Below are positions 39,601-64,000 of a stretch of DNA of 64,000 nt, piece by piece. Position numbers and translations under genes: made by a program. This stretch comes from Phoronis australis (Eukaryota > Animalia > Phoronida), in the NCBI GenBank assembly GCA_002633005.1, contig NMRA01000254.1, forward strand, positions 238,546-302,545, given 5' to 3'. The number at the start of each line of letters is the position of its first letter. Position 1 is the first letter of the stretch. The notes beneath the pieces are model-generated. The model made no database searches and had not been told where the DNA came from. It saw only the letters and a program-made list of their open reading frames with translations.

Positions 39601-39955
39601 CTTCCCTCCGAATAATAATAATAATAACACATAAAATTGTGTTATGCCTATTCACACAAGCTGTGCAACTGATACGACAGTCAGCTCAGTGAGTTTCTAA
39701 ATAAGGAGGCAATAATAACCTGGCAATAATTATTATTAGTTTACTCTACGTCCGCTGCGTGTTTCCGTCCACTTGAAAGAAGCGAAGAGACGTAGAAGGA
39801 ACTGTTCAAACACTTTGTGGCAAACAAGTGGAAGATGAACCCGAACGGTGAAAACATTTGATTTAAACCAAGACTGCTGCTATAAGATTGATTTCAATTT
39901 GTCTCTCCTCACTGGAGATTTAGCGAGATTTCCGGGCTTAAGGCTGTCACTGTTT

Positions 39956-40529
39956 CTCGCTGGTTCCCTGCGTGCCGCTAGGTGGGGCGGTAGCCGCGCC
40001 AGCACGCAGGTATCACTTAAATTTCCTCTGTAAATTTTTTTACACCGGAGTTTCTGATTGGCTAGTCGATTCGTCAACAGGCAGCGCTTTGCGCAAACAA
40101 ACTGGCATGGCTGATGGACTGAAGTGTAAATGTGGTCTGTTGTACAGACAAACCGGTGCTTAAAATTATGTTCAGGAAATGTGAAGCCTAGAAATTGTGA
40201 TTGAGCCTTTTCGGAATGCATCTTTCTACTGTCGATGACTTTTGTTTACGATAGTGTCTTTATACAGTATGAATAACACACCGTAATATGTGTTTATTGT
40301 GCATGTATGTGCTTCAAGCACGGGGCTATTAAACATCACTGCACAAACGAAATAGTTGCTGCGACGCCACTTGCATGACAAGGCTAAAATCATTCACAGT
40401 CTGCCATTTTTTTCACGGTGTTGTAAAGCTAACCAATGACTGCCAAGATTACATCGACCAATGCTAAAGCGCGTGCCACTGCGTGATACCTGCGTGCTGG
40501 CTGGGCTAAGCACGCAGGGAACCAGCGAG
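39956..40529. mobile_element. MITE with 10-bp TSD (Mutator-like), copy 1
   Basis: TIR ctcgctggttccctgcgtgc / gcacgcagggaaccagcgag; perfect TSD gtcactgttt (39946-39955, 40530-40539). Confidence 0.92.
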
Positions 40530-41089
40530 GTCACTGTTTGTGCGCCAGAACAAGCTGAGTAAAATACGTGGTCTTACAGTGCACGTTATGTCTTAGACTC
40601 AAATACTCATGACTTGTCCGTTATTCCCAGGCCTAAAAATCTCTTTGTATATTAGTAAATCTGAAACTTAACCCTGGCTGTCCCAGACTTGGCCCAGGGT
40701 CTAATGCCCGCAATTGAAATCGTGCTTGAAGTATTTTTTCATTCTCTGTTCTATTTCTAAAAGGACAGTGTCGTTTTTGGAGATTAGTACTAAATTATAC
40801 TTTTGAAACTATTAGCTCTGATTAGAGCTATAGAACACAAAAACCTTGGTGTTTATGTGACGGTATTACAAATCGCTAGTTAATGCTGATGTGTGCTCTA
40901 ATTAATCGAGTGAGATTTAACTCAGCCAGCAGAGCGTTTGGCTGCGACTACGAAAGCTTCCGTTTCGAATCCACGCTGGGGCTGTTCTCAGACAATTAAT
41001 TTCCCTGATAATGGCACTTTATATACACTCAAAACAAAATATTCTGTGTTCGAGTATATTATGCTTTAAGCAGGTAAGTGTCATGTTCA

Positions 41090-41222
41090 AATTTGCACTT
41101 GATGACCCCTTTATTCGAGTTACAAACCCGAGTATAACCTACAAATCTCACGTGAAGATTTGAGACGTCTTGTTCAGACTCGAATTTACAGCTTTTATGC
41201 TTGGGTCATCAAGTGCAATTAG
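41090..41222. mobile_element. Short MITE
   Basis: TIR ttgcacttgatgaccc / gggtcatcaagtgcaa. Confidence 0.75.
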
Positions 41223-41353
41223 ACAGTCATTCATGTAAACTTCACCAAGGAATAATGAACAACTATCGAGTGTAGAATGGAAGTGGCAACCCTAATTATG
41301 AATTCGAATTCTAAAACAAATATTAGAGCATTGCTTTATTATGGTGATTTTAA

Positions 41354-43594
41354 GGGACATGATCGATTTTAAGGCCGAAAAACGTTTTTTTTTTGGGTGG
41401 AATTGCTGTTGGGTGGTATGGATTTCTTGAAGTAATTAGTTTTGACCAGAGCTATTAAACAATAAAATACATGAACGATGTGGTTTTGTGATTATATTTC
41501 AAATTGCCAATTCATACCGTTGTCTGTCAGATATTCGCTATACTCAGGGCCGACGATTTTACCTGTTAACTATGCTCAAAATACTCTCCTGATTTATCGA
41601 GTGGCAGTTTGGCTGCGACCTAGGAGGTCCCAGGGTCCATTCCATAGCTTACATGTACCTCTATAAAACTGGTTTATGGTCTTGGAGAAAACGGACAGAT
41701 CGTTATTGTTATAGTCTATGCCTGGTTCATCAACTGACCTCCAGCCAAACAACATGGAACTATCATTCTTTTTCAACATCAGAAAAACGTTCAATTTGAG
41801 TAAGGAGCGGATTGGAGACCAACTCCAAACCGGAAAAGGCCTCATTCAAAAGTTTGTTTCTGACTGAAAGCGCGTGCTGCAGGCTTAAGGGCGCTGCCAT
41901 TACCTACATGTAAGGCCAAGATTAGTTGGCGAAAAATACTCCCGAGGATATTCGCAGAGAAACTATATCTTTTCAGGAAGAACCCTAAGTGTGAGCTATG
42001 ACTGTTTTTGCAATTAATTTCACCAGTAAATCCATTTTAATTTACCTGCAATATTGTGAGTGTTCAACGAATTAGTGATATGATTACTAACGTGGCCGAC
42101 AGGAAGCCTTTATGAGCGCTAATTTCAATGTCGTCGTATAAAAATTCCAAACCGATCACTGTGAAATTTTTATGTGACGGCAGATCAGACGTTTGACTGA
42201 GGTGTAAAACAGCAAAATATGCCGTGTTTCCGATTTTGTTGCAAATTGCCAGTCAATCGAAATCGAGGCAGCTGGGTAGCAAATTTCTCAAGAAAGCCAG
42301 AGTTTGTGACCATTTTGAAAAGCAAATTCAGGGCGTGCCATAAATCAGTGTAAATCCATTTCGACTACATCTATGTACATCTTGAGCAGGAATTTCTCAG
42401 TGTGAATGCCTATCTGTTAATTTGTTCGATGCTAGAAGTTTAGGGGCGAATGTTCGAACGGTACTGAGTGAGGAGACATTTAGATGCCTAGTTCTAATCT
42501 GATACCTACTTGTCTAGCCCGTTTCATCGCAAGACAATGGCACGAAAGTAGAACGGACTATCCCTAAAAAGGATTTTTACTGATGCTTAGCGAAACGTAA
42601 CCGTGAACATGAGTACACTGCATTTACTTACTCTCTGCACTCTGGCAAAAAGAAAATTGTACTACATTATTTTTATTCTAAACCATGTGGGCAAAACGTC
42701 ACGAGTCACGACATCATAGAGTGGATATGTCATTCTCAACTACAGCTTGACCCAAGGGCGGTGTCGAACTCAAGACCCGTGCGTCTGTAGCCTAAAGTAC
42801 TTCTTGCAAACTCATTGATCTCGATTTCAGCTTGAGTCTGGCAGACAACGGATGGAATCTCGCTGGTTCCCTGCGTGCCGCTAGGTGGGGCGGTAGCCGC
42901 GCCAGCACGCAGGTATCACTTAATTTTCCTCGGTAAATTTTTTTACACCGGCGTTTCTGATTGGCTAGTCGAATTCTCAACAGGCAGCGCTTTACGCAAA
43001 TAACTGGCATGACTGATGGACTGAAGTGTAAATGTGGTCTGTTGTTCAGACAAATCGGTGCTTAAAATTTATGTTCAGGAAATGTGAAGCCTAGAAATTG
43101 TGATTGCGCCTTTACGGAATGCATCTTTCTACTGTCGATGACTTTTGTTTACGATAGTGTCCTGTATTCATACAGTATGAATAACACACCGATTAAATCG
43201 GCCAGATATGTGCTTCAAGCACGCGGCTATTAAACATCACTGCAGAAACGAAATAGTTCAGTGCTGCGACGCCACTTGCATGACAAGGCTAAAAATCGTT
43301 CAGTCCGCCATTTTTTTACGGTGTTGTAAAGCTAACCAATGACTGCCGAGATTACATCGACCAATGTTAAAGCGCGTGCCATTGCGTGATACCTGCGTGC
43401 TGGCTGGGGCTGAGCACGCAGGGAACCAGCGAGCGGAGGGAATAAGCGATTTGAACTCAAATCACAAAAACTCAACGGATTTTATTGTTTTTCTACTGCA
43501 GCTTTGATCAAAGCTATAACTCCAAGAAGTTTATGCTATGTAGCTGTACCGCCCCAAAATGCGTTTTTCGGCCGCAAAACCGACAACGTGCCGT
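41354..43594. mobile_element. Old TTAA-flanked (Kolobok-type) non-autonomous element with degenerate TIRs of about 160 bp
   Basis: TTAA at 41350-41353 and 43595-43598; ggccgaaaaacg...ttcttg.agt...tttgtgatt...ttcaaat mirrored at 43445-43594. Confidence 0.65.
42859..43433. mobile_element. MITE with 10-bp TSD (Mutator-like), copy 2
   Basis: same TIRs and body as 39956-40529; TSD cggatggaat / cggagggaat (9 of 10 match). Confidence 0.92.
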
Positions 43595-56713: not shown

Positions 56714-56908
56714 TAGTGTTGTAATTGTCAACGCTTGGCAGTGTCTATTATACATATACAAATGTACATTTTATTGTGCGTCAGACGTCTACAAGCCACA
56801 AACTCGGACCCACTGAGCAACACTGTCGAACGGCCTTTGTTGGCTATGAGGCTCTTCACAACAGGAATTTTAAAGTCTGTCAGTTTATTTGATAAAAGAT
56901 GTGGAAGG

Positions 56909-57166
56909 TAGATAAACATTCGTCATTTCTTGTCAACCTTTATTGAAAGAATGATGGAGACCTAGAAGTACAAGTAAAGAGAATGCTTACTGTATAGCTC
57001 AAGGGTAATGACAATGTACTATAGACGGGATATAAAGTGAATACTCGTGGAAAAGGTGATAATCCCTACCTCTATGTAATTTCAACGTGTAGTCACTAAG
57101 ACAATGGTGGGAAGCTAGCTACAGAGACACCTAGTGGTTATAGTATAAACTATATATAATTCTCTA
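56909..57166 (-). repeat. 3' LTR (258 bp)
   Basis: direct repeat of 62719-62976 with 4 substitutions counted by eye; termini TAGA...TCTA. Confidence 0.97.
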
Positions 57167-57175
57167 CCTCCCCCT
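57167..57175 (-). promoter_or_regulatory. Polypurine tract
   Basis: AGGGGGAGG on the minus strand, directly abutting the 3' LTR. Confidence 0.9.
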
Positions 57176-60100
57176 AAGTTATGGAGGGACGTAATAACTA
57201 AGAGTAATGTATTATGAAGTAACAAAATCGTCCAGCCAGGCCGGTTTTCGACGTTCCCGAATAGACCGTCGAGGGGCCGGGGGTTCTGCAGCAGGGCAGG
57301 GCTCGGAAGAGCTCAGGACAGGCGGAGGATCTGTAGTGGTCACGTTAGGTGCTGGGTCGTGTGAATGACCGTCCGGAAGCTGTGCGTCGACGGTCCCGCG
57401 CGACAGTGAGTTATCAGGTGTGGGGGGTGGACCAGCGTTGCGAGTGACCAGTATGTCAGGGAGTGCAGGCCTGGCTTGGACGAGTGGCCGGGCAGGAATG
57501 TACTTCCGTAGAAACCGTCTGTTGCGGAGAGTGACACGTCCAGAGCCATGAACTCGCACGACGTATTGGTCGAACTGTCTCACCTCTATCACCAGGCCCG
57601 TCTTGTCCCAGCGGAGTGGCTCCGGTCCGGTTTGATTTTGGATGCGGACGAAATCACCGACAATGAGGGGACGAAGACGTTTGGTGTGCTCAGAGATCAG
57701 CTTCTCCGAGACCTTCATATGTCGATGGCGCAAAGCGGCCTCGCGCAGATTCAGGGTGTCAGTCCAGGTGTCGTGGGGCTTGTAGCGACCGGGCAATATC
57801 GGGATAAAATCTTTTATAGGACGACCGAAGACACATAGAGCTGGTGACAATCTCGTGTCTTTATCTGGGGTGTTACGGTACTGTAACATCGCCCGCTGAA
57901 AGGCAACCGTGTCCAGCTCGCCGTTTGGTCCAGTGTTGTCCGTAATGAGTCGCTTGATTGTTTTCACGCCAATCTCGGCTCGACAGTTGCTGTGGGGGAA
58001 AGCGACGGAGAAAACACGATGGTGGACACCCCATGACGAGAGTAGGTTCGTGGTAGCAGAGGACGTGAATTCTGGGCCGCCATCACTGGATAACTCGTCG
58101 GGTATGCCGAAAGTGACGAAACAACGGCGTAAACTGTCCACGAGACCTTTGAACCCCGAGTGAGCGCGCTCAACAATAGGCCAGTTTGAGTAACGATCGA
58201 CGATAACGAGGTAATGGAACCTTTATATGTGAAGAAGTCGGCACATACACACTGAAACGGGTAGACGGGTAAAGTAGGTGGTGTGGGAGGGGCATGTGGC
58301 TGGGATGGTGACATGCGATTGCAATGGTGACAACCCCGACGTCTCTCAGCAATGTCGTTAGTTATCCCTGGCCAGAAGACGGAAGCGTCAGCCCGAGCAG
58401 TCATAGAGGATATGCCTTGGTGGGCAGAGTGGAGCGAATCCATGATAGATGACCGTAAGGCAGGAAGAATGATGACGCGATCTTTATAGGTGATGACGCC
58501 ATCTATGGTGGACAGGTAGTCGCGAAACTGGTGGTAAGGCCGTAACGCCTCGGTTAAGGCTTCTCGTTGGTCGGGCATGCCAGATTCGATGATGCCTAAG
58601 AGGGTATGTAGGTCCTCGTCACTGCTGGTAGCCTCACGGACACGGTCCCATGTTACACATTTAAGGGAGGTAAGGGTGCAAGTGGCTGTAATGTGAACAC
58701 CGCGGTCAATATCAGTATCGATGGAAGCGACGTCGTCAGGGAGGTGAAGCTGCCCCCTTCTGCCGGTGGGGTGTCTGGAGAGAGCATCTGCCGCCTTGTG
58801 ACGCACGCCGGGGATGTGAACGATGGGGAAGCGGTATCGTAAGGTCTTCTCTTTGAGGTTGCGTAGGCGGGTGTTTGGGATATCCTCTAAAGCTCTGTCG
58901 GAGAAGACTTTGACAAGTGGTTTGTGGTCGACGGCGATCGTTAGGTCGGTGCATCTCAACACAAAGAAGCGAGCCTTGTCCAAGGAGTCAGCAACAGCCA
59001 GGGCCTCGCCTTCGATTGGGGCATATCGGGTTTCGGCAGAATGGGTGAACCTGCTGCCGACGAGTGTCACCTTCCAACCGGATGGACAACAGAATGGCCT
59101 CGTCTTGGAGCAATGGCAGTGTTTCTGCAGTAACCAGAAGCCGACTCCTGTCTTGGACCAATCGGTTGCCAGGCAAGTTGGTTTAGTCTTGTCAAAGATG
59201 CGCACACCTTCCTCGATCTGACGAATGATGACTTGCTTGGATTTGACAAAAAGTTGCTCCAGCTTTGTGCTCCAGACAAAGGGGGCTCCTTTCTTTAAGA
59301 GCTGGCGGAACGCCAAGGTCTCGTCGGCCATGCTGAATGCATACGAGACTTGGTTCAGGAGGCCAAATCAGGAGGGCATGTCGGTTATGTTTTTAGGCGT
59401 GGGGAACTCGAGTATGCTGTTCAGGTATTGCTTTGACGGGCGAACACTATCACTGGTGATTTCAAACCCGGCAAATTCGACAATGTCTTGGCCAAATGTG
59501 AATTTATCGGGGTTGAGGACAATTCCGTTTCGACCGCAGACATCCAACCATGCGCATGCCTGATGAAAGCTGTCTTCGAGGTTAGTTGCCCATAGTAACG
59601 TGTCGTCGACACATTTGGTGTGGTTGGGGATGTCAGCCACGATTTCGTCAAATCGACGAGTGTAAGCGTCGCCAGACGCAATGTAGCCTTGCGGAGCTGC
59701 GCAGTATCTGTAGCGACCCCAAGGGGTGATGAAAGTGGTGTAACGCAGAGAGGCACACTATGGTATCCATTCCACGCTTCGAAGACAGTCTTCTTCGTGC
59801 CACCGGGGATGGATCGAGCTTGGTGGAACGGGGAACGCGTGTGGTGCGTTTCTCGCAAGGCATGTCTGTTGAGGGGTTGCAGGTCTACAGTGCGACGACA
59901 CGTGCCATTTTTCTTCGCGCAGACGACCATCCGGTGGCACCATGTGACCGGTTCCCCGACTGGCACAGGTTCGATCACACCTAACTGGACGTCTTGGTCC
60001 AAGCCAGCTTTCACCTCAGCCTGCCAGTGGAGGGGAACTGGGACAGGGGAATGGTGTGCGACTGGGGTTGCGTTGGGGTCAATCATCAGGTGCATGGGCG

Positions 60101-61163
60101 GCCCGCTCATCTGGGGGAGCGGCTGATGTTGGCAGGTATTCAGAGTGCTGGCCTTGTAATAGTCCCGTAGAAAGGTCTCAAGCTCCGCCCTGTTGTCGTC
60201 AGTGGCCGGACAAGGCGGCGCAGTAGGTAGCGGAGGAGGTTTCTCACGCCAAGGACAGCCACAGGGTGCACAGGATTCAATTCCGTCAGTGTGGGTCGCA
60301 GGAGTGGATGCTGCATCACCAACGGTAGGGAAACTGTCCGTGATGAGCTGTAGGGCAACACAGGCCTCTCGGCTAAGGTAGAAGTTGTCCGTACTGTCAG
60401 TGACGTATACGATCTGTTTAGTGTGTAGGAGTTGGCCGTCGCTTGTTGCACCAGAGATATGGAGGAAAGTGGCACCCAGGATGCGGATACCTTCGTTGTT
60501 GGCAGCGTGCATCTTCATGTCGACTGGCACTAGATTGCGGCGTGTCACACCGAGGCCTTTAAGGGTCTGAAGTCCAGAGAGACAACTCTGGCATCCCGTG
60601 TCGGCCATGCATGCAATTTGAGCGTTCGGGTACCAGGAGGGTGCGAGGTCCGAGAATCCGAAGCGGGAGTAGTCATCTCTGGAGACACGAGCTGTGAGGT
60701 TGATGAAGGGTTGGGGTAGTGACCTTTCCCTCAACCAAGCATTTGTGAGCTCGTCGTAGTTGTGGTGACTCAGTGCGAGTGATCGTTTTAGGACCTGTGG
60801 GTGCGCGGAGATTTCACATAGGGAATCGAAGACAGCACTAGCGGTGTCGGGGGTTTTACCGTTTTGTGGTTTGCTGCGACAAGTGGCCTTATAGTGGTGG
60901 AGCTTGCCACAGTGTTCGCATGTGTGACCGTAGGCGGGGCATACAGTTCTGCGGGTTTGCAGCGGCGCTGTGCGGCCATGGCCCTTGCCGCCGCAATAGA
61001 TGCAGGGTGGCACGTGCTGTTTTGGTTGATTTTGATGTTGTTGTTGTCGCCGGTAGGTGCTGGCGGCTGCGGCACCGTGGGAGGCAAGGAGGCGGGTGGC
61101 CGATCGTTTACCAGCTTCCTTCGCTTCGACAAAGCGTAAGGTTTCTTCCAGAGTCATGTCCTG

Positions 61164-61564
61164 GGCCCGGTCTCCAATCTTTTTACTCGAAATGGAACTC
61201 GAAATTAGGTTTGGCATTTTCTACTCTACTTTTGGGCGAACTCAAGATAATTGTCTATTATTCTAAGCTCGAGTACACAATAACTTACGTAGATAATTTA
61301 TTGCCCTTAGTTCACAGTTTGTAAACCCAATATTAAAGCAATAAGTTCGAGTTTGAACTCGAAATTTCGAGTTTTTACTCGAGCTTGTAGCACGAACATA
61401 AGGGTCTTCAAGAGCAAACTTGAACTAGAAACTCCTATGCATAAACTATAATGTATTCGAGCACAGTCTGATAACCAATTATTTTATGTTCGCACAAAAG
61501 GAGCAGAGAAATTGCCAAGAATAGTTTCGAGTTCGTTTCGAGTACAAAGATCAGAGACCGGGCC
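61164..61564. mobile_element. PIF/Harbinger-type MITE inserted into gag
   Basis: GGCCCGGTCTC...GAGACCGGGCC termini with long imperfect TIRs, flanked by CTG / CAG; removing it restores LLGDNN-Q-DMTLEE in frame. Confidence 0.9.
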
Positions 61565-61692: not shown

Positions 61693-62648
61693 TGCAAATG
61701 CTGGCTTGGCCCCGCAAGCGGGCGCCGAAAGCGCGTATGGATTCGTCGCGGTTTTGTCGCATCCCGTGCAAGGTGGCCCTAGCGACCATTGCATTCTCAG
61801 CACGTACGGCCAGGGCGCGCATGGCGTGGAGGACATCCTCTTCCGTTCTCTCCGTGAGAGACCCTCCGGCGTTGCGGGTGAGGTCTTTGCGGAGTGGCTC
61901 ATCGCAACATTCCAGGAGTTGAATAATCCGGTCTTTGCCCGAGATGTTAGTCGCCGTGACGTAATCGGACCAGCGGGAAAGGAAATATTGCCAGTTCTCA
62001 CTCGTCCCAGCCGAGGCGATGTGAGGCCGTTTGACCTTTTCAGCAGGCACAGCATGAGGGTGGGAGCTACCAGGGACTGGTGACGTGTGACCTGTGGCGT
62101 GAGTTGTCAGTAGAGCGGCCACAATAGCGGGGTCGACGTCAGGCGTCATGTAGGGGCATCCCTCAATAGNTGCAAATGTTGGCTTGGCCCCGCAAGCGGG
62201 CGTCGAAAGCGCGTATGGATTCGTCGCGGTCTTGTTGCATCCCGTGTAAGATGGCCCTAGCGACCATTGCATTCTCAGCACGTACGGCCAGGGCGCGCAT
62301 GGCGTGGAGGACATCCTCTTCCGTTTTCTCCATGAGAGACCCTCCGGCGTTGCGGGTGAGGTCTTTGCGGAGTGGCTCATTGCAACATTCCAGAAGTTGA
62401 ATAATTCGGTCTTTGCCCGAGATATTAGTCGCCGTGACGTAATCGGACCAGCGGGAAAGGAAATATTGCCAGTCCTCACTCGTCCCAGCCGAGGCGATGC
62501 GAGGCCGTTTGACCTTTTCAGTAGGCACAGCATGAGGGTGGGGGCTACCAGGGACTGGTGATGTGTGACTTGTAGCGTGAGTTGTCAGTAGAGCGGCCAC
62601 AATAGCTGGGTCGACGTCAGGCGTCATGTAGGGGCAGCCCTCAATAGG
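61693..62648 (-). repeat. 478-bp tandem duplication of the gag 5' region (possibly an assembly artefact)
   Basis: two copies differing at about 21 sites, with a lone N at the junction (62170). Confidence 0.9.
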
Positions 62649-62705
62649 GCATTGAATGATCGGCATTGCGACGCTTGAGAAGTCGGCAGAAGTAGGTCAC
62701 TGAAT

Positions 62706-62718
62706 TAGGTCTCCATCA
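62706..62718 (-). promoter_or_regulatory. Primer-binding site complementary to the element's own LTR (self-priming type)
   Basis: minus-strand TGATGGAGACCTA abuts the 5' LTR and pairs perfectly with TAGGTCTCCATCA at 62774-62762. Confidence 0.85.
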
Positions 62719-62976
62719 TAGATAAACATTCGTCATTTCTTGTCAACCTTTATTGAAAGAATGATGGAGACCTAGAAGTACAAGTAAAGAGAATGCTTAC
62801 TGTATAGCTCAAGGGTAATGACAATGTACTATAAACGGGATATAAAGTGAATACTCGTGGAAAAGGTAATAATCCCTACCTCTATGTAATATCAACGTGT
62901 AGTCACTAAGACAATGGTGGGAAGCTGGCTACAGAGACACCTAGTGGTTATAGTATAAACTATATATAATTCTCTA
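62719..62976 (-). repeat. 5' LTR (258 bp)
   Basis: direct repeat of 56909-57166; TATA-like at 62806-62803 and AATAAA at 62754-62749 on the minus strand. Confidence 0.97.
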
Positions 62977-64000
62977 GAAGGATAATAGAATTTTTTAACA
63001 GTTCATGATGAATTGTAAAGTAGGATTAAGCTTGTCTCCCCTTGGGCCCTCGACTGTAAGATATGTGCCATACAGTGCACCAAATAACGTCTTTGAAGGA
63101 TGAAAGAAAACTGAAATATCTTTGTAACATAAATGAACGCCCCACGTCATTGAAAAGTGGAAAATTTAATACCTACCTTCTTATTATTTATGGAAGCATT
63201 AAGAAAATAAGAGATGCCATTAATAGCGACACTGCTATCAGTATAGATATTCACATGGCGACGATTCCTTTGAGAAAAGATCATTGGCTGATCGAGGGCG
63301 GTCAAGGCGGTCAGGCCCCCCTTTTCCCTGGATTTTAGTGATGTCCAATCTAGAATTTTCAAATTCTTGATTTGGACACCCCTTTTTAAAAATCCTTGAT
63401 CTGACCCCTTTAAAAGTCCTGGATCCGCCCTGCTCATGCAAGATTATCAGACGAAGTGCACAAATAGAGAAATTTCAAACCAAATGCATGCCTTCAAATG
63501 ACCAGCTCACAAACACCAAATTTCAAAGGTTAAAACGATGCCACGTGTCTTCAATGTTGCCTGAAATCACCGAAACCCTGTCTAATCAGACAAATCGAAA
63601 CTACGTTTTTGGCAGCTGCTATCTTGCTGAGTTGAAGCAGACGATCGCGTAATACGTTATAGCAGGAAGAGATAACCAGGAAGGGACAACTGTTTTAGCG
63701 CATTTTAACGTATTTTCAAAGGTGATTTCAAAAGTAAATGTTAAAGTAGTCTGGAATCCAAGCATTGTGTTTGAAAGCTTAACTCTTTAGCTATAAAATG
63801 ACACCACTTTTGTCCCCAAAGACTTCATATTAATGGCACTGGGATGCTTTGAACATGACTTGTTTTACCCTTCCAAAAGATGCCTCTTCCCAGGCATGTA
63901 CTCGGGCACGATCCTCTTTTTTGAACCAACAGATGTCACTAATATATGCAAATGAGGCTCGCATCGTCTACGTCATACGACGTCATACGGCGCGAGCTTC

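Follow-up and report, generated by a model that had tools for sequence, protein, structure and literature searches.

Judging from its sequence, the retrotransposon on the minus strand of the window, as we call the whole 64,000-nt stretch of Phoronis australis DNA analysed here, belongs to an animal lineage whose primer-binding site is complementary to, and covaries with, a segment of the element's own long terminal repeat (LTR), and it probably primes reverse transcription with part of its own RNA. Textbooks present tRNA priming as the rule among LTR elements, the exceptions being the Tf1/sushi group and a lineage of plant Copia elements. Here a large animal lineage appears to be self-primed, with an RNA fold unlike that of Tf1.

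The window element and its primer site

The element is a decayed Gypsy-order LTR retrotransposon that spans positions 62976-56909 (Table 1). Both LTRs start with TAGA and end with TCTA, and thus have non-canonical TA...TA termini. The order RT-RH-IN between two LTRs, with a polypurine tract and a target site duplication, places the element in Ty3/Gypsy. This copy is dead, as gag and pol are both broken. The duplicated gag start at 62170 is probably an overlap of two haplotypes or copies in the assembly. The insertion in gag has 19-nt terminal inverted repeats that match at 17 of 19 positions and lies between CTG and CAG triplets; it resembles a PIF/Harbinger-type MITE. Weak look-alikes of this insertion occur in the window at 854-920 and 41152-41218. 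Elsewhere in the window (39955-43408), a segment of approximately 550 nt is present in two copies that are 2.9 kb apart and 95-97% identical.

The start of Gag contains a zinc-finger-like motif, C-x4-C ... H-x3-H, both in the window (62600-62666) and in homologues. It matched a ZFAT finger weakly (E = 0.13), and a profile search with Gag matched no solved capsid. Over the LTR (62719-62976) the summed depth of DNA contigs was approximately 60-1,200, compared with 7-23 over gag; such depth is not a copy number, and it suggests that there are many solo or related LTRs.

Table 1. Features of the element, in window coordinates
Feature	Position	Strand	Remark
5' LTR, 258 nt, TA...TA ends	62719..62976	-	
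3' LTR, 258 nt, 4 differences from the 5' LTR	56909..57166	-	
Target site duplication CCTTC, 5 bp, upstream copy	62977..62981	-	
Target site duplication CCTTC, 5 bp, downstream copy	56904..56908	-	
Polypurine tract adjoining the 3' LTR	57167..57175	-	
TATA-like TATACAG	62800..62806	-	begins 32 nt upstream of the primer segment; not conserved in relatives
108-nt stretch bounded by GT and AG	62772..62879	-	apparently absent from one diverged LTR copy elsewhere in the host
Pyrimidine tract and YAG at the 5' edge of the primer	62772..62795	-	initiator or splice acceptor
Predicted self-primer segment within the LTR	62762..62774	-	predicted 3' end A62762
Stem P2, directly 3' of the primer, contains AATAAA	62737..62761	-	closing pair covaries across families
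AATAAA, outside the primer duplex	62749..62754	-	
Primer-binding site, directly 3' of the 5' LTR	62706..62718	-	complementary to 62774-62762
gag 5' part, ATG 62666, N-terminal Cys/His motif	62171..62666	-	cut by a single-N assembly join
gag 5' part, second copy, 96% identical	61693..62169	-	478-nt offset across the N at 62170
Insertion, 401 nt, terminal inverted repeats, interrupts gag	61164..61564	-	
Frame with two-knuckle nucleocapsid, protease-like region and RT start	59421..61220	-	
RT core, own separate frame, catalytic motif CVDD	59368..59757	-	
RNase H and integrase zinc domain, separate frame	57964..59367	-	
Integrase core and 97-aa proline-rich tail without chromodomain, separate frame	57212..58222	-	

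Positions 62718-62706, the 13 nt that follow the 5' LTR (TGATGGAGACCTA, minus strand), match the reverse complement of 62774-62762 exactly, and T62761 could add a 14th pair with the last base of the LTR, A62719. The complementarity claimed in a preliminary description of this DNA, 14 bp with the last LTR base, was thus borne out, and a 13-bp match was reached in only 1 of 20,000 dinucleotide shuffles of the LTR. The 84-nt RNA that contains both arms has a predicted fold with z = -3.99, and none of 200 shuffles was equally stable. A DNA contig from a public run covers 62563-62772 with five other letters, none of them listed inside the primer site. Since this contig agrees with the window over the primer site, the junction between LTR and primer site is not an artefact of the single-N join at 62170. 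Separately, five RNA reads retain the LTR end with the initial 10 nt of the primer site, and at window position 62709 they pass into unrelated sequence; they possibly come from a truncated or non-autonomous copy.

The preliminary description had also noted the lack of a standard tRNA-binding site at the LTR edge. This holds, with the addition of a detail it had omitted: a TGG occurs 3 nt into the primer site of the window copy (62715-62713).

Covariation of the primer site with the LTR in relatives

The duplex between primer site and LTR is real and under selection throughout a large animal lineage. Relatives were collected by alignment of Gag, using the best 80 of 179 metagenome loci and 7 loci from genome contigs. 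Of these 87 loci and the window, 6 had less than 130 nt of sequence before gag and were set aside; the other 82 were grouped into 45 families at 80% gag similarity. Gag identity between families was 28-87%, with a median of 56% (43 rows). Seven loci of the lineage (L081-L087) are in contigs filed under bacterial MAGs, most likely through contamination with host DNA. A search of viral contigs found no relatives.

Upstream of gag, the first member of 33 of the 45 families contained an exact inverted repeat of 11-19 bp; in control windows of equal length taken from coding sequence, such a repeat was found in 1 of 324. The other 12 families had less than 11 bp in this first pass. Rescoring with tolerance recovered L067, L073, L078 and L083 along with other members of L022, and six families (L027, L042, L053, L056, L061 and L080) had no duplex above the null even with tolerant scoring. 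These six may be truncated or decayed.

To avoid circularity, LTR ends were fixed independently of the duplex. They were anchored by a terminal motif derived from 7 copies with known ends, for which 27 of the 45 families scored well enough. The primer site paired over at least 10 nt with the family's own LTR in 22 of these 27 anchored families, compared with 4 of 702 pairings with the LTR of another family. Covariation between primer site and LTR, which the preliminary description had named as a check on its proposal, is therefore strongly evident. The 22 pairing families have 20 different 10-mers at the primer site, a variability that excludes a fixed tRNA. Because the families are related, all of these family counts overstate independence.

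The register of the duplex was examined in 18 loci with two LTR copies. The arm begins at the last base of the LTR in 10 of them; the remaining 8 have ragged alignments, small deletions or mismatches. All four LTR ends are TA in each of the 11 clean-ended loci with two LTRs, and 8 of these loci have an exact 5-bp duplication.

Double, compensatory changes were also observed inside families, between L007 and L002 and between L038 and L055. In one family of 10 loci, seven share a single pair of primer and site alleles and two (L007 and L008) have a changed pair. A further member, L004, has the changed primer in both LTRs together with the old allele of the primer site. This is the intermediate expected if the primer is copied into the site during plus-strand synthesis and the resulting heteroduplex can be resolved in favour of either allele; alternatively, L004 could be a recombinant.

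The RNA 5' end, its fold and the predicted priming

In the 32 families with a clean duplex the base that follows the duplex is always T, and the next base pairs with one located approximately 20-26 nt before the LTR end, closing stem P2. This closing pair, which took no part in selecting the families, is G-C in 22, C-G in 7 and U-A in 1, with 2 exceptions among the 32. The seven C-G families are scattered on the Gag tree, corresponding to seven changes, of which the starred branches force at least two on a tree that is poorly resolved (8 of 40 branches starred). P2 begins at the base directly after the predicted primer end and so would flank a cleavage site that yields a primer ending exactly at the LTR edge. 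In many of the folds a further small hairpin precedes the LTR end, which turns the structure into a three-way junction, and AATAAA or ATTAAA lies within the enclosed loop, outside the duplex, in 15 of the 32 families. Pairing of the U5 loop was not above controls.

According to the preliminary description, a TATA-like motif 32 nt upstream of the primer segment and an AATAAA downstream of it would bracket the start of the transcript. Both motifs are where it had placed them, and the significance it gave to the first was not upheld. The window LTR contains eight TATA words, so the one at 62806 is not special, and TATAWA occurs upstream of the primer in 2 of 22 families. Instead, the 5' edge of the primer is marked by a pyrimidine-rich YAG. 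A YAG ending 10-14 nt before the primer end was found in 24 of the 32 families compared with 2-8 of 29-31 in controls, and the pyrimidine fraction is 0.70 upstream of it and 0.51 in the loop. The arm begins no more than 2 nt from the end of this conserved YAG in 18 of the 24 families; the duplex begins at the A of the YAG in 11 of the 24 and immediately after the AG in 5. The initiator consensus is TCAKTY, and this fits 11 of the 24 families with a YAG. Branch-point words are weakly enriched (7 of 22, with 3.1 expected), and some LTRs have only about 35 nt upstream of the primer. A subgroup formed by L038, L040 and L054 has long leaders, no YAG at the usual distance and a different common upstream motif, and perhaps represents another promoter type. 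On its opposite strand, the pyrimidine tract that precedes the primer often has the form of a 5' splice donor, as in L001, L016, L082 and L083 and at 62815 and 62866 of the window.

No public run recorded as RNA was listed as containing the stretch. Three RNA runs from the same species yielded 43-100 reads each; at this depth the ends did not pile up anywhere, and the LTR upstream of 62774 was covered by reads as well. In two RNA runs, 5 reads each had an apparent GT..AG junction across the 108-nt stretch. We do not take this junction to prove splicing. Contigs from both DNA runs contain a joint that begins at the identical base, and AGGT is common to its two ends, leading us to treat it as a genomic variant of the LTR. 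The LTR copy without the 108 nt, seen in RNA reads and probably in DNA contigs, arose either through retrotransposition of a spliced LTR or through a microhomology deletion. Nor is there a gain from a primer built by splicing, which by eye would pair over 13 bp across the junction compared with 14 bp unspliced.

We propose that transcription starts at or near the YAG (A62773) and that the 5' segment of the RNA would fold back onto the primer site. As in Tf1, it is probably the element's own RNase H that would then cleave the RNA between A62762 and U62761, and the freed 3' end would prime a 43-nt minus-strand strong-stop DNA from the last base of the LTR. This strong-stop DNA would jump to the 3' repeat, and plus-strand synthesis would copy the retained primer, regenerating the primer site. 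With its predicted cut site and its predicted 43-nt strong-stop DNA, the lineage is a testable system. A more far-reaching version, which we regard as rather unlikely, would have animal-wide, independently evolved self-priming in which the YAG is a 3' splice site, so that cis- or trans-splicing onto host or leader RNA sets the 5' border of the primer and the LTRs need no promoter, a divergent C[VI]DD RT-RNase H is offered the cut site by the three-way junction and not by a Tf1-type pretzel, and the integrase acts on TA rather than CA ends.

Under self-priming, the source of the primer might also be not the 5' end but the 3' repeat of that RNA or the other RNA molecule packaged with it. The 3' LTR has the same segment, which in the transcript would precede the poly(A) site, and the sequence cannot distinguish the two sources. 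However, the intramolecular fold of the 5' end is stable and short-range, and the position of the arm relative to the YAG in 18 of 24 families is as expected for an RNA 5' end. According to passages of PMC4600332, the Tf1 primer is likewise the 5' end. We consider a primer from the 3' repeat improbable. Marginally more so, in our estimation, is a duplex that serves as a regulatory or packaging structure of the RNA 5' end, for instance by silencing the 5' poly(A) site, with some other primer in use. Consistent with such a role, the duplex is possible only where the leader follows the LTR, AATAAA is within P2 in the window copy, and covariation alone does not demonstrate priming. By contrast, the 3' arm begins exactly at the LTR edge, where primers must act, no alternative primer site is visible, and the poly(A) signal is in the enclosed loop, outside the duplex, in fewer than half of the families. 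The state of L004 also agrees with templated copying. Together, the register at the LTR edge, the absence of a nearby TGG from 26 of the 27 anchored families and L004 favour priming over a purely regulatory hairpin.

That same absence of TGG bears on priming by a tRNA or tRNA fragment, which would make the TGG three bases into the window site the partner of a CCA end and the match to the LTR secondary. The window copy does have this TGG. The diversity of site 10-mers argues against such priming, as does the comparison with known tRNA ends: in the tRNA-end table of PMC13524379, which contains the ends of that study only, the sole entry ending in GTCTCCA matches 8 of 12 nt. No Rfam family reached its gathering score in the region, and ARAGORN detected 0 tRNAs in the window. 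A tRNA match was the outcome that the preliminary description had set against its own proposal, and no tRNA in that table fits the site. We find tRNA priming scarcely credible, and prefer priming by the element's own RNA 5' end. Self-priming would release these elements from silencing by tRNA fragments.

Comparison with Mag, tubeworm, plant and Tf1/sushi elements

Homologues of the element are numerous, with 2,091 RT matches, and their named hosts include mussels, oyster, clam, scallop, snail, sea urchin, sea anemone, a hydrozoan, a tubeworm and an eel. In the open full-text literature that we searched, we found no report of self-priming in a non-chromovirus lineage of animal Gypsy elements; PMC6238403, PMC5006619, PMC10886601, PMC8556966, PMC6934838 and PMC5443660 were among the sources covered. 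The lineage itself has been sampled before, in the survey of Lamellibrachia luymesi by Aroh and Halanych (PMC8220671). All 13 Gypsy elements that it lists with TATA ends have the RT signature of our lineage, which places the lineage within one of its LGF families. The signature is in 17 rows of its RT alignment, none of which is a reference element, and the sections examined describe neither a primer site nor a mode of priming.

The preliminary description called the element Mag-like. This fits the Gag knuckles and the integrase tail and does not extend to the LTR ends or the RT motif. Like Mag, CFG1, Gulliver, Hydra2-1 and SURL, which form the Mag group, the lineage has a two-knuckle CCHC nucleocapsid and an RNRxxL integrase tail, both features of Mag type. 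The nucleocapsid was found in the window and in 47 of 64 homologues of at least 1,500 aa, and the integrase tail in 100 of 120 long homologues. Intact relatives also have a single long ORF as in Mag, and differ from it in a polyprotein of approximately 1,600 aa. The LTR ends of the lineage do not match the motifs of Mag A and Mag C, which are of the TGT..AACA type in Table 3 of PMC3601003. The RT signature of the lineage was not present in any Mag or other reference row examined, and the nearest outside clusters by protein features were K02A2.6-like, at 0.95-0.97. Thus, the lineage is Mag-like in Gag and integrase tail, and membership in Mag itself is unproven.

Self-priming was tied to Tf1/sushi in the preliminary description. 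The association with that group stands, and it is not exclusive: as stated in PMC6317226, self-priming has been predicted for the plant Copia lineage TAR (Houba, Osr-1) and for Tcn1, where a segment of the LTR is complementary to at least 10 nt after the 5' LTR. TAR and Tcn1 differ from the window lineage in superfamily or clade and in their plant hosts. The prediction for TAR shows that self-priming arose more than once. Its apparent use by a large animal lineage with a different RNA fold suggests that the switch to self-priming is easy to evolve.

The closest likeness in mechanism is to Tf1, Tf2, Tj1 and the Tf1/sushi group, in which the primer site also directly follows the 5' LTR and is the complement of a part of the LTR close to where the RNA is expected to begin. 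Passages of PMC4600332, PMC5341516 and bioRxiv 2022.12.06.519325 describe this group as having a duplex of at least 11 nt and no tRNA site, and both are true of the lineage as well. The folds diverge beyond the primer. The pretzel of Tf1 is described in bioRxiv 2022.12.06.519325 as having three duplexes, one of them a pairing of leader and LTR 3' of the primer site. This third duplex was not above controls in our 32 families, with a cognate mean of 5.2 bp compared with 5.5 bp for non-cognate and 5.6 bp for shuffled pairs; in its place, the lineage has the covarying stem beside the 3' end of the primer.

The proteins and LTR ends also differ. Tf1/sushi elements have a chromodomain at the integrase C-terminus. 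As the preliminary description had stated, none is visible here: we found none in the window, in the Pfam lists of 120 homologues or in the 10 homologues that were rescanned (0/10). The integrase tail motif of chromovirus type was present in 0 of 120 long homologues. LTR ends are TG..CA in Tf1/sushi and TA...TA in the window and in 11 of 11 loci tested, and pipelines that demand TG..CA ends and a tRNA site would overlook or mislabel the lineage. The RT motif is YMDD or YLDD in Tf1/sushi and C[VI]DD here. Of the 120 long homologues, C[VI]DD occurs in 113 and Y[ILMV]DD in none, and the RNase H of 118 contains TDWS. Hosts of the lineage are animals, from cnidarians to a fish.

Aligned by eye over approximately 170 columns, the RT is identical to SURL at about 53 positions and to TF1 and to Sushi-ichi at about 46 each, values too close for placement, and blocks common to TF1 and Sushi-ichi are absent from the lineage. 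The polyprotein of one relative scored only 125 bits against Ty3 (uncalibrated). Given the missing chromodomain, the RT motif, the TA ends and the missing third duplex, we think it likely that self-priming here originated independently of Tf1/sushi. The lineage could formally still be a fast-evolving offshoot, as its RT is by eye only slightly closer to SURL than to Tf1 or Sushi-ichi. By its predicted priming, the lineage works like Tf1 yet lacks three of the features that mark membership in Tf1/sushi.
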